NCBI GenBank assembly: GCA_000996245.1
Contig: LBYP01000002.1
Location: forward strand, 5,352 to 69,351
Direction of reading: 5' to 3'
From: Parcubacteria group bacterium GW2011_GWA2_40_23
GTDB taxonomy: Bacteria > Patescibacteriota > Patescibacteriia > UBA11705 > JABHMO01
DNA length: 64,000 nt
Under the pieces are notes generated by a model. It did not search any database. It was not told where the DNA came from and saw only the letters and a program-made list of their open reading frames with translations. A program made the position numbers and the translations under genes. Below, one piece after another: positions 1 through 47,529 of this stretch (position 1 is the first letter of the stretch; every line of letters begins with the position of its first letter).

Positions 1-186
1 ATTTGTAAGATCGCAAAAAAACTTTGCTTTGATTAAAGCATTCTCTTGAAAAGCTGTCCCTGTTTCCTCCACATCATCAGTAATACTTAGATCTTCCAAG
101 GATACGGCCTCAATGTTCCAAAGAGCTAAAAACTTTTTGAGTTCTTGAGCTTTTCCGACATTATGTGTTGCGATTACGAGTTTCAT
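1..186 (-). CDS. rdgB: RdgB/HAM1-family non-canonical purine NTP pyrophosphatase, N-terminal 62 codons (gene continues past left edge)
   Basis: Own translation of reverse strand from ATG at 186-184: MKLVIATHNVGKAQELKKFLALWNIEAVSLEDLSITDDVEETGTAFQENALIKAKFF, the conserved ATxNxGKxxE / ETGxTFxENA N-terminus of this family. Missing from ORF track because truncated. TAGAAT (rc of 195-200) lies 8 nt upstream of the ATG. Confidence 0.75.
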   Translation of the reverse strand, partial: MKLVIATHNVGKAQELKKFLALWNIEAVSLEDLSITDDVEETGTAFQENALIKAKFFCDLTN

Positions 187-216
187 ATATAAATATTCTA
201 CAAACAAACAAATCAA

Positions 217-251
217 CCCTGCACTATAAAGTGTGCCCTTTAAGTACAGGG
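217..251. repeat. GC hairpin of a dispersed intergenic family (CCCyGCAC ... GGG followed by CAAG)
   Basis: CCCTGCAC (217-224) / GTACAGGG (244-251) imperfect inverted repeat followed by CAAG. Related hairpins at 2185, 6080, 22277, 29586. Confidence 0.45.
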
Positions 252-298
252 CAAGCAAAGCAAACAATTATGCAAAAAGTCCTTTGACCATTCTTAGC

Positions 299-344
299 TA
301 ATCATAGTAATCACTTGGTAATCATGCTAATTATAGTCAATCAG
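299..344 (-). repeat. Phased array of five ATGATTA-like heptamers (plus strand TAATCAT), 9-11 bp period, abutting the T-tract of the unit A1 terminator
   Basis: taatcat 299, taatcac 308, taatcat 319, taattat 328, caatcag 338. The reverse-strand reading TGATTGACTATAATTAGCATGATTA matches 21/25 nt of the array at 18662-18696. Confidence 0.6.
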
Positions 345-347
345 AGT

Positions 348-385
348 AAAAAAAGGAGGGTCGACGCACTGTAGCATCGACCCTC
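348..385 (-). terminator. Intrinsic terminator of unit A1
   Basis: Reverse strand: GAGGGTCGA-N12-TCGACCCTC (9-bp perfect stem) followed by CTTTTTTT. Confidence 0.75.
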
Positions 386-979
386 GTGAACATGTCTTTA
401 CCACCGCGACCTTGACGGGCTTGCGATCAGAACAGCCCCGATCTTGGTCCGGCATGGATCCTCGGGGAACCGGCGTCCCATAGATACTGGGACGCGATGG
501 AGCTACGTGAACCAGCTCGGATACCGCTTGCACATGGCAAGTTCTCCTTCTGCTGTGGCCGCGAGCGTGGTGCTCGTTCTTCGGCCTCGTTCTTGCTCCA
601 GAACCGAGTTCGTGTGGCACGTCGCGAGTTGAGCTCTCGCAGCGTGCCGTCAGAAGCCGAAGATGAGCGTACCGGAGTGGAGCCGCATGAAGCCTCCGTC
701 TGCGGAATTCTCGCATCCAATTTCGAACTTCGAACCGTGTTGATCTCTTGTTGCTTGGTGAACAGCCTGTTGCACTCGGTGTTCCGCGGACTTGCTCGAT
801 GAACACAGTCTACAACAAATGAGTTCTGCGGACTTGTCCTACACGGGCGGGGGACGTGCTCTGAGCATGCGCACCTCCATGTTGTGGAACCTTGAGAACC
901 AACGTGGTGTTGATGGCCAGAAGCCGATATTCGAACGAACGCGGCTTCTTTCTCGCTAACACCACAAAAGCGAGACGAT
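348..979 (-). ncRNA. Unit A1: ~630-nt GC-rich transcript without a credible long ORF (candidate structured RNA, or decayed/scrambled coding cassette)
   Basis: Bounded by promoter 986-1014 and terminator 348-385. Many local helices, e.g. GCGTCCCA-N7-TGGGACGC at 473-495, and GGCACG/CGTGCC with nested GCGAG/CTCGC at 616-648. No frame shows the G/C third-position bias of the coding islands. The longest ORF (327-806) is Arg-rich and reads through the terminator. GGAGG (878-874) + 5 nt + ATG (868) opens only a 9-codon ORF, MLRARPPPV. Confidence 0.45.
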
Positions 980-985
980 AAAAAT

Positions 986-1014
986 ATCCTATACTATTTA
1001 TAAACTAATGTCAA
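986..1014 (-). promoter_or_regulatory. Sigma70-type promoter of unit A1
   Basis: Reverse strand TTGACA (1014-1009), 17-nt spacer ttagtttataaatagta, TAGGAT (991-986). Confidence 0.6.
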
Positions 1015-1028
1015 GTTTTTGGCAAAGG

Positions 1029-1056
1029 AAAAAGCGGTCGAGATGAGTCGAACCGC
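1029..1056 (-). terminator. Intrinsic terminator of unit A2
   Basis: Reverse strand GCGGTTCGA-N6-TCGACCGC (one bulged base) followed by TTTTTCC. Confidence 0.65.
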
Positions 1057-1267
1057 TTCTGGATTACTTGCTCGCCACGCCGTGGCACGCCGCTTCGAGG
1101 GAATCCAACCCCGGAAAAGCCTGTCTGTGGTAAACACTAAGGGGCCTTTCGACCTTAGTGCTCTGGACACTCTTCCATAGATCCTCCATGGTGTTTGTGC
1201 GTGCGCGAATCGTGACCGAACAGGATCTCTGCGTTGCTTCGCCGTTGATACGGCTTGGCAGTCCAGC
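1029..1267 (-). ncRNA. Unit A2: ~240-nt GC-rich transcript (candidate sRNA; a 41-codon small ORF cannot be excluded)
   Basis: Promoter 1274-1302 and terminator 1029-1056. Helices include CACTAAGG-N10-CCTTAGTG (1135-1160). GGAGG (1187-1183) + 4 nt + ATG (1178) opens a 7-codon ORF, MEECPEH. An SD-less 41-codon ORF (ATG 1189 to TAA 1064, MEDLWKSVQSTKVERPLSVYHRQAFPGLDSLEAACHGVASK) ends just before the terminator stem. Confidence 0.45.
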
Positions 1268-1273
1268 ATGTAT

Positions 1274-1302
1274 ATAATAGCACAATAATAAAATTATGTC
1301 AA
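1274..1302 (-). promoter_or_regulatory. Sigma70-type promoter of unit A2
   Basis: Reverse strand TTGACA (1302-1297), 17-nt spacer taattttattattgtgc, TATTAT (1279-1274). Confidence 0.7.
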
Positions 1303-1342
1303 TAGCAGTTTTACTTATTTTTGAAAATAGTCTAATTTAAGC

Positions 1343-1379
1343 AAAAAAAGAAGGGGTACCGCGTGAGCAAATACCCCTT
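1343..1379 (-). terminator. Intrinsic terminator of unit A3
   Basis: Reverse strand AAGGGGTA-N13-TACCCCTT followed by CTTTTTTTGC. Confidence 0.75.
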
Positions 1380-1447
1380 AGAACCGTGCCACCATTACAG
1401 TGGCGAGATCATGGTGTCCTCCAGTAATGGGGAAGACTAAAGTGACT
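1343..1447 (-). ncRNA. Unit A3: ~100-nt GC-rich transcript (candidate sRNA / leader-peptide RNA)
   Basis: Promoter 1450-1478 and terminator 1343-1379. Two mutually exclusive helices: CCATTAC..GTAATGG versus GCCAC-N7-GTGGC. GGAGG (1422-1418) + 5 nt + ATG (1412) opens a 5-codon ORF, MISPL (stop 1397-1395). Confidence 0.45.
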
Positions 1448-1449
1448 AC

Positions 1450-1478
1450 ATTATTACATAAAACAGCTTATATGTCAA
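1450..1478 (-). promoter_or_regulatory. Sigma70-type promoter of unit A3
   Basis: Reverse strand TTGACA (1478-1473), 17-nt spacer tataagctgttttatgt, AATAAT (1455-1450). Confidence 0.6.
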
Positions 1479-1533
1479 TAGTTAAGCCTGAGAAATAGAC
1501 AAAATCGTCTGATTTTAGTATAATTTACATAAT

Positions 1534-2175
1534 ATGCTTTACATTGTAGCCACACCTATTGGAAACCTCGAAGACATTACTTTTAGAGCTTTAAGAACGC
1601 TTAAGGAGGTGGATGTCATCTTGTGTGAAGATACAAGACAGACCATGAAGCTTTTGTCCCATTTTCAGTTTTCAAAGCATCTGATTTCTTTGCATCAGCA
1701 CACCTCGGACGAAAAGATGTTAGCTCTCTTAAAACAGTATGAAAATATTGCTTATGTAAGTGATGCAGGCACCCCAGGAATTTCTGACCCAGGAAATAAG
1801 TTAGTCGCTAAAGCGGTTGAATTGAATCTTCCGGTTTGTCCAATTCCAGGAGTTGCTGCCGTGACGACTGCACTTAGCATTTCTGGTTTTCAAACAGATC
1901 ATTTTATGTTTTTGGGTTTTATGCCCCTGCGCGGGCGAACCAAAATATTTAATTTAATCAAAGATTCTGATGTGACTATCGCATTTTACGAATCACCACA
2001 TCGAATAATCAAAACACTCGAAGCATTAAAGCCAATCGTGGGGAATCGCTTATTCTGCGTTTGTCGAGAACTGACTAAAAAGTTCGAAACTATTTACCGC
2101 GGAACTGTCGACGAGGTGCTTCCCGAAATATCTAAAAAAGTAAAAGGTGAATTTACAATTATTATAAGTAAATAA
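1534..2175 (+). CDS. rsmI: 16S rRNA (cytidine1402-2'-O)-methyltransferase RsmI (short form, 213 aa)
   Basis: N-terminus MLYIVATPIGNLEDITFRALRTLKEVDVILCEDTR is the RsmI/tetrapyrrole-methylase-fold signature. TATAAT at 1519-1524 lies 9 nt before the ATG, with no SD. Confidence 0.85.
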   Translation: MLYIVATPIGNLEDITFRALRTLKEVDVILCEDTRQTMKLLSHFQFSKHLISLHQHTSDEKMLALLKQYENIAYVSDAGTPGISDPGNKLVAKAVELNLPVCPIPGVAAVTTALSISGFQTDHFMFLGFMPLRGRTKIFNLIKDSDVTIAFYESPHRIIKTLEALKPIVGNRLFCVCRELTKKFETIYRGTVDEVLPEISKKVKGEFTIIISK

Positions 2176-2184
2176 GCTCGTAAG

Positions 2185-2229
2185 CCCCGCACCACAAACT
2201 GCCTTTGGGTGCAGGGTAAACGAGATAAG
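2185..2229. repeat. 45-bp repeat copy 1 (hairpin CCCCGCACC-N14-GGTGCAGGG plus TAAACGAGATAAG)
   Basis: Exact reverse complement of 6067-6111. The adjacent segment TAAGTGAAATAAGC...AAACTTATCTCGCTA is also shared (direct orientation) with 6032-6131. Confidence 0.85.
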
Positions 2230-2295
2230 TGAAATAAGCTAATTCAAGGTTTACTTAGCACTTAACTTGCTTAAAACTTATCTCGCTAGAAAAAT

Positions 2296-3807
2296 ATGGA
2301 AAAATATTACATAACAACACCTATTTATTACGCTAATAGCAAGCCACATATTGGTCATGCTTATACGACGATAGTGGCCGATATTTTAGCGCGATATTAT
2401 CGTTTAAAATTAGGACAAGAAAATGTTTGGTTTTTAACGGGGACAGATGAACATGGTTCAAAAATTGCGCAGGTTGCAGAAAAAGAAGGCAAAGATCCTC
2501 AAACTTTTGTTGATGATGTTTCAGCTCTTTTTCAGTTGTCTTGGAAAAATTTGAATATTAGTAATAACGATTATATTCGCACGACAGAAAAAAGACATGA
2601 AGACGTCGTCACTGAGATCCTCACGAAATTGAAATCAGCTAAAACTCCACTTGGCAATGACTTTATTTATTCTGGTGATTATGAGGGTTTATATTGTGTC
2701 GGTTGTGAATCATACAAAAAGCCTGAAGATTTGGTAGACGATAAATGTCCAGATCATAACAAAGAACCAGAATTGCTTAAAGAAAGTAATTGGTATATTC
2801 GTTTGTCAGATTATGCCGAGATACTCAAAAATAAAATTCAAAACGATGAAATAAAAGTTTTGCCAGCCGATCGTAAAACAGAAGTTTTGTCATTTATCGA
2901 ACAAGGTTTGGAGGATGTGGCCATTAGTCGTCAACAAGTTAAATGGGGCATACCGGTACCATTCGACAAAGATCAAACTATATACGTTTGGGTCGATGCT
3001 CTTCTAAACTATATCTCAGCACTTGGTTATCCAAATGACGAAAAGTTTAAAAAATTTTGGCCAGCAAACACTCAACTCTTGGCAAAAGATATTTTAAAGT
3101 TTCATGCCATCATTTGGCCAGCGATGCTCATTGCGGCCGGCATCGAGGCACCCAAAGAACTTTTTATCCATGGTTATTTCACTATTGATGGTAAGAAAAT
3201 GAGTAAAACTATTGGTAATGTTATTGATCCAAATGATTTAGTCTCTGAGTTCGGAGTTGACGCCGCACGCTATTTAATCGTTTCACAATTTCCATTTGGA
3301 CAAGACGGTGACGTCAAAGCTGATGAATTTAAAGTAAAATATAATTCTGATCTTGCTAATGGTATCGGTAATTTAGTTAGTCGTGTAATTACGATGGCTG
3401 AAAAGTATTGCGATAATAAAATTCCAGCATTGAAATATACTGGCACTTTTAATTTAACCGCACTTTGGAAAAGAGTGGAACAAAATTATGTAGATTATAA
3501 GATTTTTGAGAACCTTAGAGAAATTCAAGAATTAATTAGCTGGGCTGACAATCATATTGCCGAAACTACGCCTTGGGCCAAGGCTAAAGAAGGGAAGGCA
3601 GCAGAAGTAAACCAAATCCTTTATAATTTAATTGAAGTCCTGAAACAACTTGCGGGGTTATTACTTCCGATACTTCCACAAACCGGAGCAGAGATTCTTA
3701 AACGTATAAATTTTGCTTCTACTGATATAGAATCAATTAAAACACTGAATAATCTCGACTCAAAAAAAACATTAGATAAAGGTGAGCCTTTATTCCTTAG
3801 AAAGTAG
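2296..3807 (+). CDS. metG: Methionyl-tRNA synthetase
   Basis: HIGH-type motif PHIGHAYT and KMSKS-type motif KMSKT. Length and N-terminus are typical of MetRS. Confidence 0.95.
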   Translation: MEKYYITTPIYYANSKPHIGHAYTTIVADILARYYRLKLGQENVWFLTGTDEHGSKIAQVAEKEGKDPQTFVDDVSALFQLSWKNLNISNNDYIRTTEKRHEDVVTEILTKLKSAKTPLGNDFIYSGDYEGLYCVGCESYKKPEDLVDDKCPDHNKEPELLKESNWYIRLSDYAEILKNKIQNDEIKVLPADRKTEVLSFIEQGLEDVAISRQQVKWGIPVPFDKDQTIYVWVDALLNYISALGYPNDEKFKKFWPANTQLLAKDILKFHAIIWPAMLIAAGIEAPKELFIHGYFTIDGKKMSKTIGNVIDPNDLVSEFGVDAARYLIVSQFPFGQDGDVKADEFKVKYNSDLANGIGNLVSRVITMAEKYCDNKIPALKYTGTFNLTALWKRVEQNYVDYKIFENLREIQELISWADNHIAETTPWAKAKEGKAAEVNQILYNLIEVLKQLAGLLLPILPQTGAEILKRINFASTDIESIKTLNNLDSKKTLDKGEPLFLRK

Positions 3808-3863
3808 TAATTTGCTTTTTTGTTTTCTTGCTTTTTTGATTATCGTTAAATAATTTTCTAAAT

Positions 3864-4706
3864 ATGATAGACACTCATGCCCATGTTAATTTTAGCACCT
3901 TTAAAGATGATGCTGATGCAGTAATTCAATCAGCTTTAGATAAAAAAATTGCTATTATTAATGTTGGGTCGCAAATCAGCACTAGTCGTCGTGCCGTCGA
4001 GTTGGCCGCTAAGTATCCTCGTGTGTTTGCAGCTATTGGTTTACATCCGATTCAATTACAGGATGAAGAAGTAATTGAGGAGGGAATCACTTTCACTACA
4101 CGGAAAGAAGAGTTTAACTACTCAACATACAAAGAGTTGGCTAAACAGAAACATGTCATCGCTATTGGTGAGACTGGTTTGGATTATTACCATATTCAAG
4201 AAAGGCCTGAATTTAAAGAGATTGTTGAAGATCAGAAGAAAGTTTTTCATCAACATATAGATTTGGCAAATGAAATGAAATTGCCCATGATCATTCATAC
4301 CCGAAGTGGTAAAAATAATAGTGATGCGGCGTGCATCGATATTCTCTCGGAGTTAAGAAAAAATAAACCTAAATATGGTGGAGTTATGCATTGCTATGCT
4401 GGTCCGCCTGAATTGATTAAGGATTTTGTGGCCCTGGATATGTATATTAGTTTTAACGGTATTTTAACTTTTGATAAAACGGGACTCATCGAAAAAATCT
4501 TGTTCTCAACACCCGAAGATCGAATTCTAACTGAAACCGATTGTCCTTATCTAACTCCTGCGCCATATAGAGGCAAACGTAATGAACCGGCCTATGTGGA
4601 TTTTGTAGTTTCTAAAATCGCTGAACTAAAAAATCGTGAATTTGCTGAAATTGATCTTTTAACGACCAGAAACGCAGAACGACTTTTTCATATCGCTTTA
4701 CAATAG
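3864..4706 (+). CDS. tatD: TatD-family metal-dependent hydrolase/DNase
   Basis: MIDTHAHVNF N-terminal HxH metal motif, GETGLDYY, ~280 aa. Confidence 0.85.
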   Translation: MIDTHAHVNFSTFKDDADAVIQSALDKKIAIINVGSQISTSRRAVELAAKYPRVFAAIGLHPIQLQDEEVIEEGITFTTRKEEFNYSTYKELAKQKHVIAIGETGLDYYHIQERPEFKEIVEDQKKVFHQHIDLANEMKLPMIIHTRSGKNNSDAACIDILSELRKNKPKYGGVMHCYAGPPELIKDFVALDMYISFNGILTFDKTGLIEKILFSTPEDRILTETDCPYLTPAPYRGKRNEPAYVDFVVSKIAELKNREFAEIDLLTTRNAERLFHIALQ

Positions 4707-4770
4707 GATTTTATGATCAAGCTTCGTATTGTGACTTATAAACAAGAATGCTTGATTTTTTTTTATTTTC

Positions 4771-5097
4771 ATGATAGATTGTAGGTGCTTTTCTATACCT
4801 ATGCAAAATTCTAAGAATGAGAAAGTTTGGTGGCAACCGGCCATCGAAATCTTTGTTCAAGTCTCTGGATGGATTGTATTCCCGCTACTCATCGGTATTT
4901 ATTTAGGCCGATGGTTACAGGAAAAATGGGGACATGAACCGTGGATATATATAGGTTGTGTTGCGGCTGCTTTCATTATTACAAATGTGGGTTTAATACT
5001 GATTGTTTTAAAGGCGGCCAAGAAAATGCAAAAAGTCATCGACGAATCCGAAAAACAAGTTCAGAATCACAAAGAGACTGAGCAAGTAAAAAAATAA
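4771..5097 (+). CDS. AtpZ/AtpI-like small membrane protein preceding atpB (alternative start ATG 4801)
   Basis: Two hydrophobic helices; positioned immediately upstream of atpB as in many atp operons. Confidence 0.5.
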   Translation: MIDCRCFSIPMQNSKNEKVWWQPAIEIFVQVSGWIVFPLLIGIYLGRWLQEKWGHEPWIYIGCVAAAFIITNVGLILIVLKAAKKMQKVIDESEKQVQNHKETEQVKK

Positions 5098-6006: not shown

Positions 6007-6066
6007 TAAAGTGAGTAAGCTTGTAAGCTAGTAAGTGAAATAAGCAAGTCAAGGACTCGCTTGAAA

Positions 6067-6111
6067 CTTATCTCGTTTACCCTGCACCCAAAGGCAGTTT
6101 GTGGTGCGGGG
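6067..6111. repeat. 45-bp repeat copy 2 (inverted relative to 2185-2229)
   Basis: cttatctcgtttaccctgcacccaaaggcagtttgtggtgcgggg is the exact reverse complement of 2185-2229. Confidence 0.85.
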
Positions 6112-6163
6112 CTTACGGCTTATCTCGCTATAAAATAAGAGTGATAAACCAAGCAGACGTTAA

Positions 6164-13637: not shown

Positions 13638-13666
13638 TTGACAAACATAAGAAAGTATGTTATTGT
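13638..13666 (+). promoter_or_regulatory. Sigma70-type promoter of island B
   Basis: TTGACA (13638-13643), 17-nt spacer aacataagaaagtatgt, TATTGT (13661-13666). Confidence 0.6.
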
Positions 13667-13705
13667 TATGGCAATTGAACCTGTGCTACAACGATGGAGG
13701 AATCC

Positions 13706-13990
13706 ATGGATCTGATCGGATTGGACATGAAGGCTCGTCAGGCTCGGGAGAAGTTCACGGTCGTGACCAAGCTGGGTGATGCGGTCTGGACGCCGGCGGA
13801 GATCAACCGACTGGTGCACCAGTACAGAACCATCATCAGCACGCTTCCCAGGATGCCCTCCGTCGCGATTCTCGCGGGAGAGTACTCCAAGGACCAGCTC
13901 GTCGCGTTCCTCGGGACGGACAACTTCACCGTCGAGCTGATGGTCGGTCGCCAGAACCCCAAGCTGCCGTTCAGCGCTCCGATGCTCTGA
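13706..13990 (+). CDS. Island B1: 94-aa GC-rich protein of unknown function, paralog of B2
   Basis: GGAGGA ends 4 nt before ATG 13706. G/C-ending codons dominate. About 45% identity to B2 over ~67 aa (KFTVVT..G..VW..E..RL....PR..SVAI.AGE.SK...V..LGTD.F.VEL.V). Confidence 0.7.
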   Translation: MDLIGLDMKARQAREKFTVVTKLGDAVWTPAEINRLVHQYRTIISTLPRMPSVAILAGEYSKDQLVAFLGTDNFTVELMVGRQNPKLPFSAPML

Positions 13991-14020
13991 GCGCGGCAAG
14001 TTCGAAAGAGAGGAACGGAC

Positions 14021-14248
14021 ATGCTGGTTCTGTTGACTCCTGCCAAGTTCACCGTCGTGACCTTGTTCGGTTTTGGGGTGTGGCATAAGGACGAGGTTCA
14101 ACGTCTGGCGAACAGGCTGAGAGCCTGCGTCTACACGTATCCAAGGAGGCTTTCGGTCGCGATCATCGCGGGAGAGCACTCCAAGGCTTCGATCGTGGAC
14201 GTCCTCGGTACGGACGACTTCGGCGTCGAGCTGAAGGTCAAGTGCTAG
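14021..14248 (+). CDS. Island B2: 75-aa GC-rich protein, paralog of B1
   Basis: AGAGAGGAA SD-like motif 5-6 nt before ATG 14021; same conserved blocks as B1; followed directly by terminators. Confidence 0.7.
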   Translation: MLVLLTPAKFTVVTLFGFGVWHKDEVQRLANRLRACVYTYPRRLSVAIIAGEHSKASIVDVLGTDDFGVELKVKC

Positions 14249-14282
14249 AAACCAGTCACTCAAGGTTTCAAGAGGCGAGCAG

Positions 14283-14351
14283 CTTCGTAGTTGCTCGCCT
14301 TTTAAATTTTAGGAAATGAGACAACTCGTCTCTTTTTGTTTATTATGCTAA
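14283..14351 (+). terminator. Two tandem terminators closing island B
   Basis: AGGCGAGC-N12-GCTCGCCT + TTTTAAATTTT (14283-14320), then GAGAC-N5-GTCTC + TTTTTGTTT (14328-14351). Their outer halves, AAGAGGCGAGC and CTCGTCTCTTTTTGTTT, duplicate the host terminator at 13501-13532. Confidence 0.7.
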
Positions 14352-17337: not shown

Positions 17338-17370
17338 AAAAAGGGCCACGCAAACTTGTGTCTGCGTGGC
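17335..17370 (-). terminator. Terminator of island C (also sits directly after the helicase stop)
   Basis: Reverse strand GCCACGCA-N10-TGCGTGGC followed by CCCTTTTTTTT. The T-tract is present only in the minus orientation. Confidence 0.7.
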
Positions 17371-17396
17371 TCCTTGCGACGAGTTGTGACTCGGCG

Positions 17397-18377
17397 CTAG
17401 TTGGTGAGCACGTGGCTGATGTCCATGTCCGGACTGACGATCAGCTTCTGTGCCGTGTTCTCGCCGATGACCTCGATCGCCTCGTTCGGACCCGTACCCA
17501 GGTTCGGGATGAACCCGATCTGGATGTACGAGTACTGCTCGAGGGGATCGACGTCGCAGCGCACGTCGAAGGCCGTCGTGGTGCCCTTGGGTAGGAAGAT
17601 GTCCGTCAGGTCATGGAAGACGAGCTGCGCGTTCCATCCCTCGGTGTTTACGTAGGGTTGACCCTGGTAGGCCAGGGTGTGGCCACCCGAGATCAGGCTG
17701 CAGTTGCGCACCTTCTCGAAGTGGTCCCCGGTCATCATCATCGACAGCGTGACCTCGGTGAGAACGCCGTCCTCGGCGTAGGCCGTGTCTTCGGCGTCGA
17801 CCATCAGGTAGAACGTGAACAAGTGGACCTGCGAACCTTCGACGAGCAGGTTGCTGGTTTCCTTCTTCCAGACCATGACGGTCGAGAATTGCGGCTCCAT
17901 GTACGGCGCGCAGACTTCTTCGACGGAGCAGTAGAACGTACGGTTGCCCCTGGCGATGGCGTCGTAGAAGGCTTGGAAGTTGCTGTGCCAGACGTTCATC
18001 ATCGCGATCTGCTTCTGCGCCGCGATCCGTCGCAGCTTGTAGGTCGGGATCATGGCGATGGGGTATTTGGGGTCTCCCGCCAAGGCCAGCTTGATCTTCC
18101 AGGTGTTGGTCGTCGCGTTCTGCGTCGCCTTGGCCAGGAACTGGCCCTCGTACTGGAAGTAGTAGCTGATGTTGTCGGTGAAGTTGGTCCACCCGACGCA
18201 GTCGGTGCCGTACCAGTCCGGCAACTGGCCGGTCAGGTTGAAGTAGTCGATGCTTTCCTGGTTGTACGTCTCGGCGACGTACTTGAGGTCGGCGAAGGTC
18301 TGGGGCGGACCGCCCCCGGCGTACGCGGCACTCGAGAAGCACAGGACGGCGAGCAGGGCGATGAGGGTCTTCTTCAT
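17397..18377 (-). CDS. Island C: secreted 326-aa GC-rich protein of unknown function
   Basis: Signal peptide MKKTLIALLAVLCFSSAAYA. GGAGGA lies 7 nt before the ATG. Near-exclusive NNC/NNG codon usage (checked codon by codon). Several Cys residues; no motif I can name. Confidence 0.8.
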   Translation of the reverse strand: MKKTLIALLAVLCFSSAAYAGGGPPQTFADLKYVAETYNQESIDYFNLTGQLPDWYGTDCVGWTNFTDNISYYFQYEGQFLAKATQNATTNTWKIKLALAGDPKYPIAMIPTYKLRRIAAQKQIAMMNVWHSNFQAFYDAIARGNRTFYCSVEEVCAPYMEPQFSTVMVWKKETSNLLVEGSQVHLFTFYLMVDAEDTAYAEDGVLTEVTLSMMMTGDHFEKVRNCSLISGGHTLAYQGQPYVNTEGWNAQLVFHDLTDIFLPKGTTTAFDVRCDVDPLEQYSYIQIGFIPNLGTGPNEAIEVIGENTAQKLIVSPDMDISHVLTN

Positions 18378-18447
18378 CTCGGATTCCTCCTTCGGACGTT
18401 TCGAACCTTAGATCGATGGTGTACATCACCAATCTCTCTTTGGCACC

Positions 18448-18476
18448 ATTCTAGCATGTTTTTAATAAATTGTCAA
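18448..18476 (-). promoter_or_regulatory. Sigma70-type promoter of island C
   Basis: Reverse strand TTGACA (18476-18471), 17-nt spacer atttattaaaaacatgc, TAGAAT (18453-18448); ~64-nt leader. Confidence 0.7.
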
Positions 18477-18499
18477 ACCTATTTTCATCGTTTTGCGAG

Positions 18500-18520
18500 C
18501 CTGCCTGCCGGCCAGGCAGG
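18500..18520. other. Isolated GC hairpin ~25 nt upstream of the island C -35 box
   Basis: CCTGCCTG-ccggc-CAGGCAGG, 8-bp perfect stem, no T-tract on either strand. Confidence 0.4.
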
Positions 18521-18661
18521 GAGCACTTTCGTTAAAAAGCGACGTGGCAATCTCTAATTCGATTTCTAATTAATCAAATCAATAGGTTATACATTTTTAT
18601 TCGTAAATTTAGCAAAATACTAGATACTGTCTAAGCGAACCTAACTGCAAATCGAGGATAC

Positions 18662-18696
18662 TAATCATGATAATCATGAAAATCATAGTTAATCAT
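18662..18696 (-). repeat. Phased array of four ATGATTA-like heptamers abutting the island D terminator
   Basis: taatcat at 18662, 18671, 18690 and aaatcat at 18680 (period 9-10 bp). Homologous to the array at 299-344. Confidence 0.6.
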
Positions 18697-18699
18697 GGC

Positions 18700-18735
18700 A
18701 AAAAAGAGCCCCACCGTTCGCGACGAACGGTGGGG
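18700..18735 (-). terminator. Intrinsic terminator of island D
   Basis: Reverse strand CCCCACCGTTCG-tcg-CGAACGGTGGGG (12-bp perfect stem) followed by CTCTTTTTT. Confidence 0.8.
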
Positions 18736-18740
18736 CAGGG

Positions 18741-19364
18741 CTAGAAGTTCCAGACCAGGCGCAGGTACAGCACGTGGTCACCCGCGATCTCCGGCGTGAA
18801 GTCGTAGGCGACCCAGATTCGGCCCGCGCCGAGCAAGATCGAGGGGCCGATGGCCGCCTCGTCGAACGTCTTCTCGGAGAAGAAGTTCTCCTGGACGATG
18901 CCGAACCCAGCGATGTTGCCTGGCTTCATCCAGTCGAGGGTGGTCAGCGTGTAGTAGTTCCGCTGCACGTGCCCCTTGTCGCCGTCGACAGGGAAGTAGA
19001 CGTCGCCCTCGACGCACAGGAGCAGGTCGCTTGGCAAGGGCTGCGTGAGCCAGATGCTCGCGAGAGCGGACATGCCGCCGTCGTTGGTCATCCAGAGACC
19101 TCCCAGGAGCTTGAGGTTCGTCTTCGTCGACAGGACGCTCATCTCCGGCCCGAAGTAGCCGAAGATCATGGAGTTGCCGCGCATTGACACCAGGCCGGTG
19201 GCGTGGGCGTAGATGCCGCCCGTGATGTTCTCGCTGAGCGTGAACGGGGAGAAGGTTCGGCCCAGGGTGACCAGGAACTGGCCGTTGGACTCGACCTTGG
19301 CCTCGGCGGCCGTGGGGATGATCATCGCACACAGCAACAGGATCACGAGCAGGAAGCGCTTCAT
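18741..19364 (-). CDS. Island D: 207-aa secreted protein with outer-membrane beta-barrel-like features
   Basis: Start placed at MKRF (ATG 19364) with GGAGG 5 nt upstream. Signal peptide MKRFLLVILLLCAMIIPTAAEA. Gly/aromatic-rich alternating pattern. C-terminus YLRLVWNF has hydrophobic residues at positions -1, -3, -5, -7 and a terminal Phe (classical OMP beta-signal). Confidence 0.7.
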   Translation of the reverse strand: MKRFLLVILLLCAMIIPTAAEAKVESNGQFLVTLGRTFSPFTLSENITGGIYAHATGLVSMRGNSMIFGYFGPEMSVLSTKTNLKLLGGLWMTNDGGMSALASIWLTQPLPSDLLLCVEGDVYFPVDGDKGHVQRNYYTLTTLDWMKPGNIAGFGIVQENFFSEKTFDEAAIGPSILLGAGRIWVAYDFTPEIAGDHVLYLRLVWNF

Positions 19365-19409
19365 CGAAGCCTCCAAAGTGGTGTGACGTCCCGTGAAACA
19401 GGACATTCT

Positions 19410-19437
19410 AATTTATCATAAATAATAAAAAAGTCAA
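19410..19437 (-). promoter_or_regulatory. Promoter of island D
   Basis: Reverse strand TTGACT (19437-19432), 16-nt spacer, TGaTAAATT extended -10 (hexamer 19415-19410). The -35 box ends 1 nt from the ATG of the divergent host gene at 19439. Confidence 0.55.
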
Positions 19438-19438
19438 G

Positions 19439-19762
19439 ATGCAAGGCATTAGTGGTATACTAAAATCAACTTTCAATAAAAGAAGTGTCCTCAGCAAACA
19501 AGTGCAATCTGGGATGATTGTTGAGTTTGTTAATGAACTAATTCATGAATACTGGGGCAAAAAGGGCGCTGAACAGGCAAAGGCTAAATTTATAAAAAAT
19601 AAAATTTTAACTATATTTACTGTAAATGCAGGCATGTCGCAGGAAATTAAATTTAAACAAAATAAAATATTAGAAACAGTTAACACTAGGTTTGATGAGC
19701 GGGTACTTAATCAATTAAAAATCGTTGCCGGCGGAATTGACAAAGGCGATGATATACCGTAA
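19439..19762 (+). CDS. DUF721/DciA-like small protein (host-type composition except the last ~13 codons)
   Basis: 107 aa with pattern W..VVG-like EYWGKKGAEQAKAKFIKNKILTIFTVNAGMSQEIKF, typical of DUF721. The 3' end, GTTGCCGGCGGAATTGACAAAGGCGATGATATACCGTAA, is GC-richer and contains the island E -35 box. Confidence 0.5.
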   Translation: MQGISGILKSTFNKRSVLSKQVQSGMIVEFVNELIHEYWGKKGAEQAKAKFIKNKILTIFTVNAGMSQEIKFKQNKILETVNTRFDERVLNQLKIVAGGIDKGDDIP

Positions 19763-19765
19763 AAC
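19737..19765 (+). promoter_or_regulatory. Candidate promoter of island E embedded in the 3' end of the DUF721 gene
   Basis: TTGACA (19737-19742), 17-nt spacer aaggcgatgatataccg, TAAAAC (19760-19765, overlaps the stop codon). Confidence 0.45.
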
Positions 19766-19797
19766 GAAGTGATGGCCTTTCCATCAAGGAGGTTCCC

Positions 19798-20115
19798 ATG
19801 GATGCACGACAAAAGGTCGTGGCAGTGTTCGATCTTCCGCACGGTGAAGGTCAGGTCGATCTGATGGTCGACATGGCACTTGAGTCCAGCTGGACTGGCC
19901 AAGGAATCGATACTTCGTACTTCATGTTCCACAAGCCGCACTGCGGCGGTCCCATGCGGCCGATCAAGGTGGCGGACAAGAAGATGGTTCTGTACTGCAG
20001 CGGTTGCGTGTTGCGTCTTCAGCTTCTGATCATGAAACTGCCTACGAACCTGGGCGAACTCGGTGAAGCGATCAACGAGACCTGCACGCATTCGGATCTG
20101 CCCTCACGTTTCTAA
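19798..20115 (+). CDS. Island E: 105-aa GC-rich protein with Zn-ribbon-like Cys/His spacing
   Basis: AAGGAGG lies 5 nt before the ATG. HKPHCGGP ... YCSGC (H/C-x..-CxxC). G/C-ending codons. Confidence 0.7.
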   Translation: MDARQKVVAVFDLPHGEGQVDLMVDMALESSWTGQGIDTSYFMFHKPHCGGPMRPIKVADKKMVLYCSGCVLRLQLLIMKLPTNLGELGEAINETCTHSDLPSRF

Positions 20116-20127
20116 TCGAGATAATAT

Positions 20128-20162
20128 CAGGCCTTCCTAGCACTAGGAGGCCTGGTTTTTTA
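20128..20162 (+). terminator. Intrinsic terminator of island E
   Basis: CAGGCCTTCCTAG-ca-CTAGGAGGCCTG (one bulge) followed by GTTTTTTAT. Confidence 0.75.
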
Positions 20163-29566: not shown

Positions 29567-29639
29567 GTCACCATGAGTTTACTTGCCCAGCACCCAAACG
29601 TAGTGAGTGGTGCTGGGCCGAAGGGTGACATTTTGTTTC
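29567..29639 (+). terminator. Compound hairpin terminator of lysS containing a family GC hairpin
   Basis: Outer stem GTCACC/GGTGAC encloses CCCAGCACC-N14-GGTGCTGGG (29586-29617), followed by ATTTTGTTT. Confidence 0.65.
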
Positions 29640-29640
29640 A

Positions 29641-29679
29641 CAAAATAAACAGCGAGAAATCATTTGAGACGTCCCGCTG
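29641..29679 (-). terminator. Terminator of island F
   Basis: Reverse strand CAGCGGGA-N13-TTCTCGCTG (8 bp including one G-U) followed by TTTATTTTG. Confidence 0.55.
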
Positions 29680-29686
29680 AGTTGGA

Positions 29687-29878
29687 CTAGGCGCGTTGCT
29701 TGACCTTGAGTTGCATGTACAAGGCGATAGGAAAGAAGATCAGCCCGAAGAGTCGGTAGATCAGGAAGTCGCCAGCAGGAACCCCTGAACGTAAGGTTGG
29801 ATCATCTCTGACGAGACTCGCAGCGAAATAACCCCAGAGCAAATTGAGCAGGACGACGGCTACTGCGATAGAAAGCAT
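29687..29878 (-). CDS. Island F: 63-aa GC-rich two-TM membrane peptide
   Basis: GGGGGAGG lies 5 nt before the ATG. Hydrophobic segments are SIAVAVVLLNLLWGYFAASLV and LIYRLFGLIFFPIALYM, with a basic C-terminus KVKQRA. Confidence 0.65.
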   Translation of the reverse strand: MLSIAVAVVLLNLLWGYFAASLVRDDPTLRSGVPAGDFLIYRLFGLIFFPIALYMQLKVKQRA

Positions 29879-29916
29879 TCAAGCCTCCCCCAAAAGATTT
29901 GCGCACCCGAAAGCAT

Positions 29917-29945
29917 ATATTAGTTTTATTATACCTGTTTGTCAA
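29917..29945 (-). promoter_or_regulatory. Sigma70-type promoter of island F
   Basis: Reverse strand TTGACA (29945-29940), 17-nt spacer aacaggtataataaaac, TAATAT (29922-29917). Confidence 0.7.
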
Positions 29946-43269: not shown

Positions 43270-43420
43270 TTGTTGTAAATGTTGAAAATGTTTATCCCGC
43301 ATTTTAAGGGCTTGTCATGTAGTTAAAGAGTATACTTTATACTACATGGAACACTTTATAGTGCGGGATTCTAAATGTTCAAATTCTTCCATTACATTGT
43401 AACACAACTGAGCCTAGAAC

Positions 43421-44956
43421 TTAAGATAAGAAGTCGAGGGCTTTTTGAATCCGAGCTAATGTTTTATCTTTCCCTAGCGCAGAAGCTAGTTCAAACGGTC
43501 CTGGTGATTTGTCTCGACCAGAAAGAGCATAGCGCAAAGGCCACAGAATTGAACCAGTATCAAGGTTGTTTTGTTGAATCAAGGCCTTGAGATCAACCTC
43601 TATTTTTTCTGAGTTGAATGATTCGTCTTTTAAATCTTGAAAATATTGTAAGAGAAGTTTTAAATTCACTTTTGTTTGTTCTTTGTCGGATTTCTTCCAG
43701 ATCAAATTCTCTGCAGGATATCCAAGATTGTTACTAAGCATAAAGCCAATCGCCTCTGGTAAGTCACTTAACTTTTTAATGCGACTCTTTTCGAGGGCTA
43801 AAATGCGGTTCAATTCAGTTGGTTTAATGCTCTCCCCTGTTTCGTTAATAACAATTTTATTGTCAGAAAAAGTCAAAAGTTCAGCTTTTTCTAAATATGG
43901 TTTGGCCAGTTCTAGGAATTTTGCTTCTGAAGATTCGCGAATATAAATGCCATTAATCCAATCTAATTTATCGACGTCGAAAACAGCACCTGCTTTATGA
44001 ACATTATCAAGTGAAAATTGATTAATAAGTTCATCGAAAGTATAAACTTCTTGTTCTGTGCCGGCGTTCCAGCCGAGTAAGGCAATAAAGTTCAAAAGAG
44101 CTTCTTTTAAATAACCAGATTCAACAAAATCAGAAACACTTGAATCTCCGTCGCGTTTGCTAAGCTTTTTGCGTTGTTTGTTTAATAATTGTGGTAAATG
44201 TGCGAATTGGGGCATTTGCCAACCAAAAGCTTCATACAATAAAACATGTTTGGGTGTGCTGGCAATCCATTCGTCTCCACGCATAACTTGAGTTATTTTC
44301 ATCAAATGATCATCAACAATATTGGCAAAGTGATAAGTTGGGAAATTATCTGCTTTCATTAAAACATAGTCATCGAGGTTCTTGGTATTAAAAATAATTT
44401 CGCCACGAATTAAATCATCACAAATTACATCTTTATTTTCGGGCATGCGGAAACGAATAACATGCGGTGCCCCCTGTTTTAAAAGCGTTTGAACTTCATC
44501 TTTAGATAAATCTCGACATAAATTATCGTATTTGGGTGCCAGTTTATTTTTAACCTGATCTTCGCGTAAAGTTTCCAGTCTTTCTTTACTGCAAAAACAA
44601 TAATAGGCTTTATTTTTGTCTAATAAATCTTGTATATGTTGTTGATAGATGTCTAGTCGCTGTGATTGCGTATAAGGTCCAAAATCACCTTTTTCCTTGA
44701 CCTTGCCATCTTTTGTGAGGTATGGACCTTCATCACCCGAAATATTAGCCCATTCAAGGACTTTAAGTAAATTTTCTACTGCTCCTGGCACTTTTCTTGT
44801 TTGGTCTGTGTCTTCGATTCTAATTAAAAAATTACCTTTATAATGTTTAGCAAAAAGAAAGTTATAAAGAATGGTTCTTAGGTTGCCAATATGAACAAGT
44901 CCTGTTGGGCTTGGAGCAATACGAACGCGTACATTTTGAGTATTAAGTTTTTCCAT
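43421..44956 (-). CDS. gltX: Glutamyl-tRNA synthetase
   Basis: RIAPSPTGLVHIGN (HIGH-type) and KLSKRDG (KMSKS-type) motifs. Confidence 0.95.
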   Translation of the reverse strand: MEKLNTQNVRVRIAPSPTGLVHIGNLRTILYNFLFAKHYKGNFLIRIEDTDQTRKVPGAVENLLKVLEWANISGDEGPYLTKDGKVKEKGDFGPYTQSQRLDIYQQHIQDLLDKNKAYYCFCSKERLETLREDQVKNKLAPKYDNLCRDLSKDEVQTLLKQGAPHVIRFRMPENKDVICDDLIRGEIIFNTKNLDDYVLMKADNFPTYHFANIVDDHLMKITQVMRGDEWIASTPKHVLLYEAFGWQMPQFAHLPQLLNKQRKKLSKRDGDSSVSDFVESGYLKEALLNFIALLGWNAGTEQEVYTFDELINQFSLDNVHKAGAVFDVDKLDWINGIYIRESSEAKFLELAKPYLEKAELLTFSDNKIVINETGESIKPTELNRILALEKSRIKKLSDLPEAIGFMLSNNLGYPAENLIWKKSDKEQTKVNLKLLLQYFQDLKDESFNSEKIEVDLKALIQQNNLDTGSILWPLRYALSGRDKSPGPFELASALGKDKTLARIQKALDFLS

Positions 44957-45074
44957 AATTTATGTAAATTTCATCAACATTATAGTCTATTTTGAGCAAC
45001 AAGTAAATGACAGTCAAGGTCAACGAATATATTGGCTAAATTTATTTAAAATATTGACATATCGTTTGAAGGGG

Positions 45075-45103
45075 TTGACAAAATTGTAATTATTTGCTAT
45101 TAT
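45075..45103 (+). promoter_or_regulatory. Sigma70-type promoter of island G
   Basis: TTGACA (45075-45080), 17-nt spacer aaattgtaattatttgc, TATTAT (45098-45103); ~110-nt leader. Confidence 0.7.
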
Positions 45104-45220
45104 TACCTGTTATTCAAGTGTTTACCTTAGCTTTTTGAGGCTGAGTTAATTTCCGCCTTTTAAAGGTGTAGTGAACACCACAAGTGATCTGTTCCCCAAC
45201 CATCCGTGAGGAGGTGCCTG

Positions 45221-46735
45221 ATGCTGTACCAGAAACTGCTCGATGCGAAGATCGGAGTCGGTCCGGCCACCATCACCAAGCTCGACGAGGCGGGTCTCAA
45301 GACCGCCGAGGCCATCCTGGCCGCCGGGCTCGACGGGCTGCGCGCCATCAAGGTCTTCCCGCCGATCGCGGGCAAGATCCTCGAGGTCGCGCTCGCCAAC
45401 CCGACGCCCGCCACCGAGATCGAGGCCGCGTCGGCCCCGATCATCCTCCACCCCGACGACGCGGCCAAGGTGGCCGAGGTCGCCCCCACCACCACGAAAA
45501 ACGAGACCCCCGCGGTCCTGGTCAAGCGGCAGACGGTGTTCGCCGCCAAGCTCGAGGAGGCCGCCAAGGCCAACGGTACGACGGTGGAGGAGCTCCGCGC
45601 CGCCGCCAAGGCCAACGTGCCGGCCGAGAAGCCGGTCGTGGTGACCCACAAGACCCTGGCCAAGCCCGAGAACGAGCACGTGAACTTCATCGACGTCGGG
45701 ATCGAAACCCCGACCGAGTTCACGAGCCCCGTGCGTCTGCGCGACTTCTTCGACAAGCTGCCCAAGGGGCAGGTGCCGGACAGCGCGCGCTACATCAAGA
45801 ACCTCTTCCCCGTCTGCGCGATGTGTCGCGCCGCGGGCAGCACGAAGACCCTCCAGATCGACCACGTGCACGTGCTCGTGGTCACCCGTCTCGACGGCAG
45901 CGTCAACAGCGGTTTGTTCTGCGACGACCACATCACGGTGGCGTACGGACAGGCCAAGGACCTGGTCAAGGACGGGAAGCTGAAGGAGGTCAAGATCATC
46001 TGGCTGCGCGAGGCGTGGGCCAACCTGACCCGCGCGTACAGGGCGCAGGTCGACGAGGCGCGCGAAGAGCGCTACCGCAAGGAGCGCGCCGACCGCCGCA
46101 CGGCCGCCCTCCGGGCCGTGATGGAGGATCTCGGCTCGGTGACCAGCGAGCACTGGATGACCGACGAGCAGCTCGGCAGCTACGTGTCGCCCATGGACGT
46201 CCCGGTCTTCACGTGCGGACTCGAGGCGAAGCAGGCCCGTGAGCTGCACCTCCTGCCCAACGACAAGGAGAAGGGTACGTTCAAGGGGCGCTGGGGGCGG
46301 TTCTACGACGAGTACGGCATCCGGCTCGTCATGCGGCCCCCGCAGGACCTGACCCAGCACAACACGCTCGTCCAGCACTTGCGGGACGACGCCAAGGCCG
46401 CCCAGGCCACGCCGTTCTTCCCCGTCGTCCTGGTCCGCCGTTACTTCGGTGACGACCTGGGCTGGCGCTACCTGGCGATCCACGAACTGGTCATCGAGGA
46501 GTTCGTGGCGACCTACGAGCAGGCGCACAACTTCAAGGTGCGCACCGGGGCCATGGCCTACGAGTGGCTGACCCGTCGCTGGGAGGTCCAGCGCGAAGAA
46601 GCCGCCAAGGCCGCGGCGCAGGCGTTCGCCAAGAGCGACGAAGGCAAGGCGCTGAACGCCTTCCTCAACGCCGCCCCGGACGACGAGGCCGCCGCCGACA
46701 GCGCCCTGTTGGCCGGCAGCGCCCACAAGAAGTAA
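45221..46735 (+). CDS. Island G: 504-aa GC-rich protein with N-terminal helix-hairpin-helix pair and a CxxC..DH..N..CxxH (HNH-like) motif
   Basis: GAGGAGG lies 6 nt before ATG 45221. HhH-like KIGVGPATITKLDEAG and LRAIKVFPPIAGKILE. Cys/His motif VCAMCRAAGSTKTLQIDHVHV...VNSGLFCDDH (nt 45815-45931). Strong G/C third-position bias only in this frame. Confidence 0.75.
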   Translation: MLYQKLLDAKIGVGPATITKLDEAGLKTAEAILAAGLDGLRAIKVFPPIAGKILEVALANPTPATEIEAASAPIILHPDDAAKVAEVAPTTTKNETPAVLVKRQTVFAAKLEEAAKANGTTVEELRAAAKANVPAEKPVVVTHKTLAKPENEHVNFIDVGIETPTEFTSPVRLRDFFDKLPKGQVPDSARYIKNLFPVCAMCRAAGSTKTLQIDHVHVLVVTRLDGSVNSGLFCDDHITVAYGQAKDLVKDGKLKEVKIIWLREAWANLTRAYRAQVDEAREERYRKERADRRTAALRAVMEDLGSVTSEHWMTDEQLGSYVSPMDVPVFTCGLEAKQARELHLLPNDKEKGTFKGRWGRFYDEYGIRLVMRPPQDLTQHNTLVQHLRDDAKAAQATPFFPVVLVRRYFGDDLGWRYLAIHELVIEEFVATYEQAHNFKVRTGAMAYEWLTRRWEVQREEAAKAAAQAFAKSDEGKALNAFLNAAPDDEAAADSALLAGSAHKK

Positions 46736-46757
46736 CGTTCAACAACGTTCGTAGCCG

Positions 46758-46795
46758 CCTCCCGAGGACTCATTTCTCGGGGGGCGCTTTTTTTT
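46758..46795 (+). terminator. Terminator of island G; its T-tract runs into the -35 box of island H
   Basis: CCTCCCGAG-N9-CTCGGGGGG followed by CGCTTTTTTTT. The last Ts are the first bases of TTGACA at 46794. Confidence 0.7.
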
Positions 46796-46822
46796 GACAA
46801 ATATACACCTGAACTCTATGAT
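46794..46822 (+). promoter_or_regulatory. Sigma70-type promoter of island H
   Basis: TTGACA (46794-46799), 17-nt spacer aatatacacctgaactc, TATGAT (46817-46822). Confidence 0.7.
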
Positions 46823-46855
46823 TGTACTAAGTGGTACTGTTCTAAGGAGCGTGGC

Positions 46856-47473: not shown

Positions 47474-47477
47474 AAAT

Positions 47478-47518: not shown

Positions 47519-47529
47519 ACAAAATAAAT

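Follow-up and report, generated by a model that had tools for sequence, protein, structure and literature searches.

The spacer between the Ham1/RdgB-like gene (rdgB) and rsmI of Parcubacteria group bacterium GW2011_GWA2_40_23 comprises 1347 nucleotides (nt), and no gene is called in it by public assemblies. It lies at the start of a 64,000-nt stretch of contig LBYP01000002.1, which was analyzed as a whole and is referred to here as the window. On the minus strand of the spacer, three units (A3, A2, and A1 in the direction of transcription) follow each other head to tail at positions 345 to 1480. Each of them consists of a TTGACA promoter with a 17-nt spacer and a −10 box, a GC-rich body of 55 to 60% GC, and an intrinsic terminator (Table 1). 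A sequence-only reading of this DNA had described three tandem, separately promoted and terminated units on this strand, and the description proved correct, with its features present at the positions given. Indeed, only 0.04 promoters of this type are expected in the 1347-nt spacer, none of 3000 dinucleotide shuffles reached three, and the promoters and terminators of A1 to A3 are far more frequent than chance. The GC content rises within ~30 nt from 0.20 to 0.30 in the promoter gaps to 0.52 to 0.63 in the bodies.

The same reading had pointed out that the bodies, for all their GC, have no third-position bias. We confirm this: third-position periodicity was found in no frame, with GC contents at the three codon positions of 0.60/0.54/0.54 in A1 and 0.60/0.52/0.52 in A2. 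For comparison, the window has seven GC-rich protein cassettes, five of which have a third-position GC content of 0.79 to 0.95; the remaining two have values of 0.54 and 0.68. The long open reading frames (ORFs) had been described as reading through terminators, and the ORF at 327-806 (minus) does cross the terminator of A1. Clusters of ATGATT repeats are located directly 3′ of the last terminator in two minus-strand GC-rich islands of the window (18663-18696 and 300-330).

The window is part of the natural genome of an uncultured groundwater bacterium of the candidate phyla radiation, with a GC content of ~35%. Positions 1-4786 match, with 100% identity, a metagenome scaffold in ENA that stems from the Rifle aquifer study, and further stretches are identical to JGI and Logan contigs of other runs; because identical DNA was recovered in ENA, JGI, and Logan assemblies, the sequence of the locus is real and not an assembly artefact. 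Synthetic or chimeric DNA, suspected from the expression-cassette look of the units, was rejected since independent assemblies contain the identical DNA and relatives have syntenic but diverged versions of it. The RsmI protein of the window is identical to NCBI entries of "Parcubacteria group bacterium GW2011_GWC2...", and the nearest GTDB species representatives are Patescibacteria with an RsmI identity of ≤58%.

Mini-ORFs led by Shine-Dalgarno sequences

Inspection of the bodies revealed strong translation initiation sites in all three units. If a strict site is taken as a Shine-Dalgarno (SD) sequence (GGAGG or AAGGAG) followed by 3 to 9 nt and ATG, the sense strand of the three bodies has five, compared to 0.09 expected; as many sites were reached in none of 2000 dinucleotide shuffles, and there are no such sites on the antisense strand. 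The ATG follows 4 to 5 nt after every GGAGG and 8 nt after the one AAGGAG, and the 50 nt that precede each SD are A/C rich and G poor. The ORFs opened in this way have only 5 to 12 codons; one is located in A2, one in A3, and three in A1, where they are designated modules 1 to 3 (Table 1). The earlier statement that the units contain no credible ORF therefore holds for long or conventional genes, but it does not cover the enriched SD-ATG mini-ORFs, one of which is conserved at the peptide level (see below).

The three ATGs of A1 share one frame (spacings of 180 and 153 nt), and the same is true for the related loci L087 and L088. A read-through polyprotein encoded by A1 was considered and rejected: the spacings in a third related locus, L127, are 172 and 128 nt and thus not multiples of three, and the frame is devoid of periodicity.

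Table 1. Features of the rdgB-rsmI spacer and its flanks, with one GC-rich gene from elsewhere in the window (window positions)
Feature	Position	Strand	Details
rdgB (Ham1/RdgB-like gene)	1-186	minus	
A1 intrinsic terminator	348-385	minus	12-bp stem and T7
A1 transcript (predicted)	348-980	minus	~630 nt; three SD-led mini-ORFs
A1 module 3	503-549	minus	AAGGAG 549-544; ATG 535; MCKRYPSWFT; TAG; member of the conserved decapeptide family
A1 module 2	650-697	minus	GGAGG 697-693; ATG 688; MRLHSGTLIFGF; TGA
A1 module 1	839-878	minus	GGAGG 878-874; ATG 868; MLRARPPPV; TAG 841-839
A1 promoter	986-1014	minus	TTGACA 1014-1009; 17-nt spacer; TAGGAT 991-986
A2 intrinsic terminator	1029-1061	minus	hairpin and T-tract
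A2 transcript (predicted)	1029-1268	minus	~240 nt
A2 hairpin around stop codon	1135-1160	minus	CACTAAGG...CCTTAGTG
A2 mini-ORF	1155-1178	minus	ATG 1178; MEECPEH; TAA
A2 SD	1183-1187	minus	GGAGG
A2 promoter	1274-1302	minus	TTGACA 1302-1297; 17-nt spacer; TG-extended TATTAT 1279-1274
A3 intrinsic terminator	1343-1379	minus	hairpin and T7
A3 transcript (predicted)	1343-1444	minus	~100 nt; predicted transcription start site near 1443
A3 mini-ORF	1395-1412	minus	ATG 1412; MISPL; TAA
A3 SD	1418-1422	minus	GGAGG
A3 promoter	1450-1478	minus	TTGACA 1478-1473; 17-nt spacer; TG-extended AATAAT 1455-1450
rsmI	1534-2175	plus	Pfam TP_methylase
504-amino-acid (aa) GC-rich ORFan gene	45221-46735		ortholog at L086 10001-11590

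The same spacer in relatives and a conserved decapeptide

The rdgB-rsmI spacers of relatives were located via RsmI. Two lineages have short, AT-rich spacers without units, i.e., L092 (RsmI identity of 92%; 64 nt) and L123-126 (82%; 182 nt). L087 and L088-91/L113 (83% each) have spacers of ~820 nt with two GC-rich units, and L127 (69%) has a spacer of 1486 nt with three GC-rich units; in L127, a methyltransferase gene separates the island from rdgB. The island is an accessory element of the clade: four lineages have it and two (L092 and L123-126) do not. The units of the relatives are built in the same way as A1 to A3, with a TTGACA-17-(−10) promoter, a body of 53 to 62% GC, and a terminator. 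In sequence, they have gone separate ways: blastn of the relatives' units against A1 to A3 found no similarity, and the units of L087 and L088 align in patches only, even though RsmI is 89% identical between these two.

What the A1-type units have in common is a mini-ORF. Eight ORFs from four lineages encode peptides of the form M-x-x-R-(Y/F)-P-S-(G/W/H)-x-x; seven of the eight have exactly 10 codons, and all eight end at TAG. The relatives carry two to three copies per A1-type transcript, and A1 of the window carries one (module 3). The largest unit of L087 encodes MRRCFPSGFF (start codon TTG) and MRRRYPSGDT, that of L088 MSRRYPSGCPPGV and MRRRYPSGCT, and that of L127 MKIRYPSGDT and MTFRFPSGFD (both with GTG as the start codon) as well as MHFRYPSHFL. 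Between genomes, codons 4 to 8 of this ORF have identities of 0.77, 0.80, and 0.50 at positions 1, 2, and 3, and the identity in the 30 nt on either side of the ORFs drops to 0.26 to 0.29. The Ser codon is of the TCN type in two copies (TCA or TCC) and of the AGY type in the other six (AGC or AGT). This pattern is the signature of selection on the peptide and not on an RNA motif.

Strict initiation sites are also enriched in the units of the relatives, with 11 in sense and 0 in antisense orientation compared to 0.71 expected, and 9 of 10 units from the four lineages have at least one strict SD-start site. The middle unit of L127 (3180-3600, minus; 428 nt, 53% GC), which has its own promoter and terminator, has neither a strict SD-start site nor an Rfam match and is the best candidate for a purely noncoding RNA among the units compared.

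Module 1 of A1 occupies the position at which the relatives have their first decapeptide ORF. A profile built from the eight modules and run with nhmmer found only the copies used for training and picked up neither module 1 nor module 2 of A1, and therefore, these two cannot be claimed as members of the family on the basis of sequence.

The smaller units probably have counterparts as well, judged by shared sequence elements. Unit 1 of L087 is the probable counterpart of A2: the two have in common the terminator arm ATCCAGAAGCGGT and an SD-ATGGA start, and the mini-ORF of L087 reads MEKLSQKR followed by TAG. Where A2 has a hairpin around its stop codon, L087 unit 1 has CGTTAGG...CCTAACG, a correspondence of two sequences only and thus anecdotal. 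The probable counterpart of A3 is unit 1 of L088, with which it shares TGGAGG(A/T)CACCATG.

A wider search did not extend the family. A degenerate scan for an SD followed by M-x-R-R-Y-P-S-G gave 30 matches in JGI metagenomes, of which the genuine ones belong to the already known L088 lineage only and the remaining ones are chance matches inside GC-rich coding DNA; the corresponding scan of IMG/VR gave 6 matches, all by chance. No copy of the decapeptide ORF was present in 80 more distant Patescibacteria loci. Within the data reached, the family is confined to a small Parcubacteria clade. Two of the more distant Patescibacteria (L015 5470-5900 and L019 4860-5300, minus) have a GC-rich, separately promoted and terminated unit adjoining rsmI upstream, whose product is a small, glycine-zipper-like membrane protein; the site upstream of rsmI may be a recurrent home for small GC-rich units.

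Searches for RNA families, protein homologs, and RNA structure

The sequence-only reading had offered two explanations for the units, novel structured or small RNAs (with A1 in the size class of the large ornate bacterial RNAs, but assigned to no family) or decayed or scrambled versions of protein cassettes. The absence of a family match was borne out by Rfam 15, which gave no match at the gathering threshold in the whole window; under relaxed settings, the best match (23.8 bits against a threshold of 40) covered a terminator only. Among the relatives, the L127 spacer had sub-threshold matches only, again under relaxed settings, and L087, L088, L123, and L092 had none at the gathering threshold. 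ARAGORN predicted no tRNA or tmRNA genes in the window, and A1 had no blastn match in phage and plasmid collections. When the units were compared with the window and with 82 fetched loci by blastn, nhmmer, and tblastx, they matched only themselves.

Protein homology was not found either. The 185-codon frame, the longest one open in A1, had no match at an E value of ≤0.001 among 1.84 billion protein representatives, and a six-frame concatenate of A1 and A2 had no match at an E value of ≤0.01 among 5.8 billion proteins. A tblastx search for remnants of protein genes found only chance-level similarity between the units and the window's own cassettes. Together with the missing codon periodicity, these results give no support to the explanation by decayed or scrambled cassettes.

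Compared to dinucleotide shuffles, the units fold only weakly better. The z scores were −2.4 (A1), −2.3 (A2), and −4.0 (A3) with the terminators included and −2.8, −1.1, and −2.2, respectively, without them. Ten units from all lineages, likewise without terminators, had z scores of −0.4 to −3.2, every one negative, with a mean of ~−1.5. Outside the mini-ORFs, nothing could be aligned between relatives whose RsmI proteins are 69 to 89% identical, and the A2 type gave a two-sequence alignment only. With these modest and inconsistent z scores and nothing to align, a large ornate structured RNA is not supported for A1; what is supported is that A1 to A3 are self-contained, separately promoted and terminated units that have no conventional gene and match no known RNA family. 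The predicted folds fit locally structured GC-rich messages, possibly with regulated ribosome access, and do not demonstrate a conserved architecture.

More specific RNA-based functions were also considered. A protein sponge of the CsrB/RsmZ type was rejected, as A1 has only 10 GGA and 3 A.GGA motifs in 639 nt. Pairing of the units to the leaders of the GC-rich cassettes, predicted with RNAduplex, was no better than for shuffles, and the unconstrained duplexes were unrealistic. A type I toxin-antitoxin system, i.e., a hydrophobic peptide of 20 to 60 aa with an overlapping antisense RNA, was rejected as well: the peptides have 5 to 13 aa and are not hydrophobic, and no antisense promoter is present inside A1 to A3.

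SD sequences and GC content in the rest of the window

Other sharply bounded GC-rich cassettes are located at 13638-14300, 17340-19440, 19740-20160, 29570-29945, and 45075-47510. They encode ORFan proteins for which searches with Pfam, PHROGs, and PADLOC returned nothing informative; a Pfam domain is found in none of the GC-rich cassettes of the window. Their design, a TTGACA promoter, a GGAGG SD, and a strong terminator, is that of A1 to A3. Among the host ORFs, only 3 of 44 have an SD-like motif, and many host genes look leaderless, with a −10 box within ~10 nt of the ATG (rsmI, for example). Most of the cassette ORFs (13706, 14021, 18377, 19364, 19798, 29878, 45221, and 46856) have GGAGG 4 to 8 nt before the start, and the one at 14021 has a weaker GAGAGGA instead. 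Since the host genes are nearly without SDs while the ORFs of the GC-rich cassettes carry them, the SDs of A1 to A3 are not background noise. A search of the literature on GC-rich islands or SD usage in candidate-phyla-radiation bacteria found nothing relevant.

The syntenic relative L086, which has ~80% nucleotide identity to the window, has kept the cassettes for a 504-aa and a 205-aa protein in place. In the 504-aa gene, 34% of the fourfold-degenerate sites differ between window and L086, compared to 38 to 49% in host genes. Of the 64 changes at these sites, 50 are C↔G exchanges, and the fourfold GC content stays at 0.94 to 0.96 (host genes, 0.29 to 0.32). The GC-richness of the 504-aa gene therefore appears to be actively maintained in an AT-rich genome and not to be a relic of recent transfer. 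The 205-aa cassette is without that pattern (fourfold GC content of ~0.54, mixed changes). The same force plausibly explains why the spacers of A1-type units drift in sequence and not in composition, if what is seen in the 504-aa gene may be extended to them.

Discussion

On balance, we lean towards the view that A1 to A3 are stand-alone mini-gene transcription units and that A1 belongs to a clade-wide family of polycistronic decapeptide RNAs. Most likely, the three units are unannotated micropeptide genes and neither ornate RNAs nor pseudogenes. From their build, we infer that each unit would be transcribed from its own near-consensus sigma-70 promoter into an abundant, stable, monocistronic-style transcript that ends at its own intrinsic terminator. 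Ribosomes would load at the strong SD sites on the GC-rich RNA (one in A2 and A3 each, three in A1) and translate the mini-ORFs. In the A1-type unit, the selected product would be the decapeptide, or the act of translating it, with termination at UAG; the variable GC-rich spacers probably provide a stable, nuclease-resistant scaffold and insulate the initiation modules from each other. A1 itself would represent one decapeptide copy plus two diverged mini-ORFs. As for the peptide, our best guess is a small effector that acts on or near the ribosome, which we favor by analogy to minigenes, with an exported signal as the second option.

Several observations weigh against this model. The SD cores are mostly base paired by prediction (mean unpaired probability of 0.18, compared to 0.39 for whole units), and translation may therefore be inefficient or regulated. 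The eight decapeptide ORFs derive from just four related lineages, so that their counts are not independent, and of the three ORFs of A1, one alone belongs to the conserved family. Neither A2 nor A3 has a conserved peptide, and in L088, the ORF that corresponds to that of A3 is a bare AUG-UAG. Since the counterparts share the SD-start while their peptides differ, it is the ribosome-binding site that is conserved in A2 and A3, and what counts in these units may be the binding of ribosomes and not the peptide.

The strongest competitor, which we consider rather unlikely, is a structured or regulatory noncoding RNA, whose GC-rich bodies are the functional part (as scaffold, sponge, or antisense RNA) and whose SD-AUG sequences bind ribosomes or proteins, e.g., as an anti-SD or 30S decoy, with the peptides as by-products. 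The pairing of the SD cores and the bare AUG-UAG of L088 would fit such an RNA, as would the stop-codon hairpin that the A2-type pair keeps with a different sequence. It would also account for bodies that stay at 53 to 62% GC across lineages in a host of ~35% GC with no alignable sequence and for ten out of ten units folding better than shuffles. However, the mean z score would not be unusual for an ordinary GC-rich mRNA, no Rfam family was matched above threshold, and no sequence outside the ORFs is conserved, not even where RsmI is 89% identical. The one element that is conserved varies like codons, and an RNA motif would not tolerate the switches between TCN and AGY in the Ser codon. Enrichment of GGA motifs of the CsrB type and pairing to cassette leaders beyond that of shuffles were not found.

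In a bolder reading, which we regard as improbable, A1 to A3 would be the RNA-and-micropeptide members of a separate expression class in this Parcubacteria clade, marked by host-type promoters, strong SDs, and maintained GC. Such a class could be served by a distinct translation regime, e.g., in stress or in a specialized ribosome state, or, more radically, consist of messages for the SD-using, GC-rich bacterial host of an episymbiont. The decapeptide mini-genes would then act directly on ribosomes, with the nascent peptide in the exit tunnel or through termination at UAG, which depends on release factor 1 (RF1).

Very little speaks for decayed or scrambled GC-rich protein cassettes, in which promoter, SD, ATG, and terminator were retained and the frame collapsed. 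The units do share the architecture of the window's protein cassettes, and the frames of A1 are unusually open (185 and 159 codons), but neither the 185-aa frame nor the six frames of A1 and A2 matched a protein, codon periodicity is missing, and tblastx to the window cassettes stayed at chance. Furthermore, the 10-codon length, the motif, and the TAG stop recur in four lineages, and decay would not preserve them. A cis-regulatory array of successive leader-peptide attenuators that governs read-through into rdgB is very unlikely: every unit is oriented like rdgB and has a terminator 3′ of a short ORF, the arrangement of classical attenuation, but each has its own promoter with a perfect −35 box, rdgB has its own −10 box beside the ATG and follows a 64- to 182-nt spacer without units in L092 and L123-126, a methyltransferase gene intervenes in L127, and no alternative antiterminator pairing is evident in the minimum free energy folds.

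Comparison with known systems

Close parallels to the mini-gene units are the bacterial minigenes, such as the bar minigenes of phage lambda and the mini-gene for a pentapeptide, the E-peptide, in 23S rRNA. The effect of minigenes depends on the translation of the mini-ORF, either by drop-off of peptidyl-tRNA or by the nascent peptide acting in cis in the exit tunnel. Like A1 to A3, they combine a strong SD and a very short ORF in an otherwise noncoding, structured RNA, and the high-copy, high-expression design of A1 to A3 would suit a mechanism of this type. Unlike the units described here, minigenes have 2 to 6 codons and are cryptic or phage borne; the ORFs described here have 5 to 13 codons and sit in dedicated, tandem units, and a peptide is conserved across lineages.

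Apparently noncoding transcripts with one or several tiny ORFs are known from dual-function small RNAs (RNAIII/hld, SgrS/SgrT, and SR1/SR1P), which combine one ORF of 26 to 43 aa with a base-pairing domain, and from the eukaryotic tarsal-less/pri RNA of insects, in which one conserved peptide motif is repeated on a single RNA. In contrast to the dual-function small RNAs, the peptide here has 10 residues, and no base-pairing target was found among the cassette leaders. With leader and arrest peptides, the units share the order of a short SD-led ORF and a terminator hairpin as well as Arg and Pro in the peptides. However, the transcripts of A1 to A3 contain no downstream regulated gene, a new promoter follows each terminator, and the ORF is repeated two to three times in the A1-type units of relatives; to our knowledge, R-(Y/F)-P-S-G matches no known arrest motif.

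Ornate and housekeeping RNAs (OLE, ROOL, GOLLD, HEARO, raiA, RNase P, tmRNA, 6S, and SRP) resemble the units in being 100 to 640 nt long and GC rich in an AT-rich genome, with their own promoter and terminator, but A1 to A3 match no covariance model, and outside the mini-ORFs, no sequence or structure was seen to be conserved between relatives. Finally, the 7-codon gene mccA for the microcin C precursor likewise stands alone, has <15 codons, and is preceded by its own SD. MccA peptides have Asn as their last residue, and mccB lies next to the gene; the peptides described here have T, F, D, L, or V at the last position, and no Pfam domain is present in the GC-rich cassettes of the window.

If the mini-ORFs are translated, the decapeptide family is among the smallest conserved bacterial genes, with a 10-codon ORF that occurs in tandem on dedicated transcripts in relatives and that no gene caller has annotated in any public assembly of these genomes. 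The hosts are candidate-phyla-radiation bacteria, about whose accessory functions very little is known, and the units are gained and lost between close relatives, as expected for functions in interaction or defense. In one genome, there is a sharp dichotomy between AT-rich, SD-less housekeeping genes and GC-rich, SD-led accessory units whose GC content appears to be kept up by selection or by a biased process, and this offers a handle on the partitioning of translation in reduced cells. Dedicated promoter-terminator units, a tandem, conserved 10-codon ORF, strong SDs in an SD-less genome, and a maintained GC-rich composition are found together in none of the minigenes, dual-function small RNAs, pri/tal, and leader peptides.

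Other features of the window

The AT-rich 5′ leader (~115 nt) of the 504-aa cassette is nearly identical in the window (45104-45220) and in L086 (9930-10032), with the proteins being 67% identical, and may be a conserved regulatory leader. The island with the 504-aa and 205-aa cassettes is bracketed by a 30-nt direct repeat (44948-44977 and 47514-47543; 83% identical, with TAAATTTCATCAA in common), possibly the trace of the event by which the island was inserted.

A perfect 52-nt inverted repeat (2179-2230 and 6066-6117) surrounds a metG-tatD-atpB block, and related hairpin repeats of the type CCCAGCACC...GGTGCTGGG occur at 29578-29617, 54256-54295, 215-242, and 43343-43370. Inverted and hairpin repeats together look like a host repeat family similar to repetitive extragenic palindromes (REP-like).

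Two GC-rich ORFan cassettes, 18741-19406 and 17397-18377 (both minus), encode proteins with signal peptides and without a Pfam, PHROG, or PADLOC match. The 221-aa signal-peptide ORFan ends in ...LRLVWNF and looks like an outer-membrane beta-barrel, which is odd for a Parcubacteria genome. A further GC-rich cassette encodes two paralogous small proteins without a known domain (13694-13990, 98 aa, and 14021-14248, 75 aa), which share FTVVT...VAI(L/I)AGE(Y/H)SK...LGTD(N/D)F(T/G)VEL.

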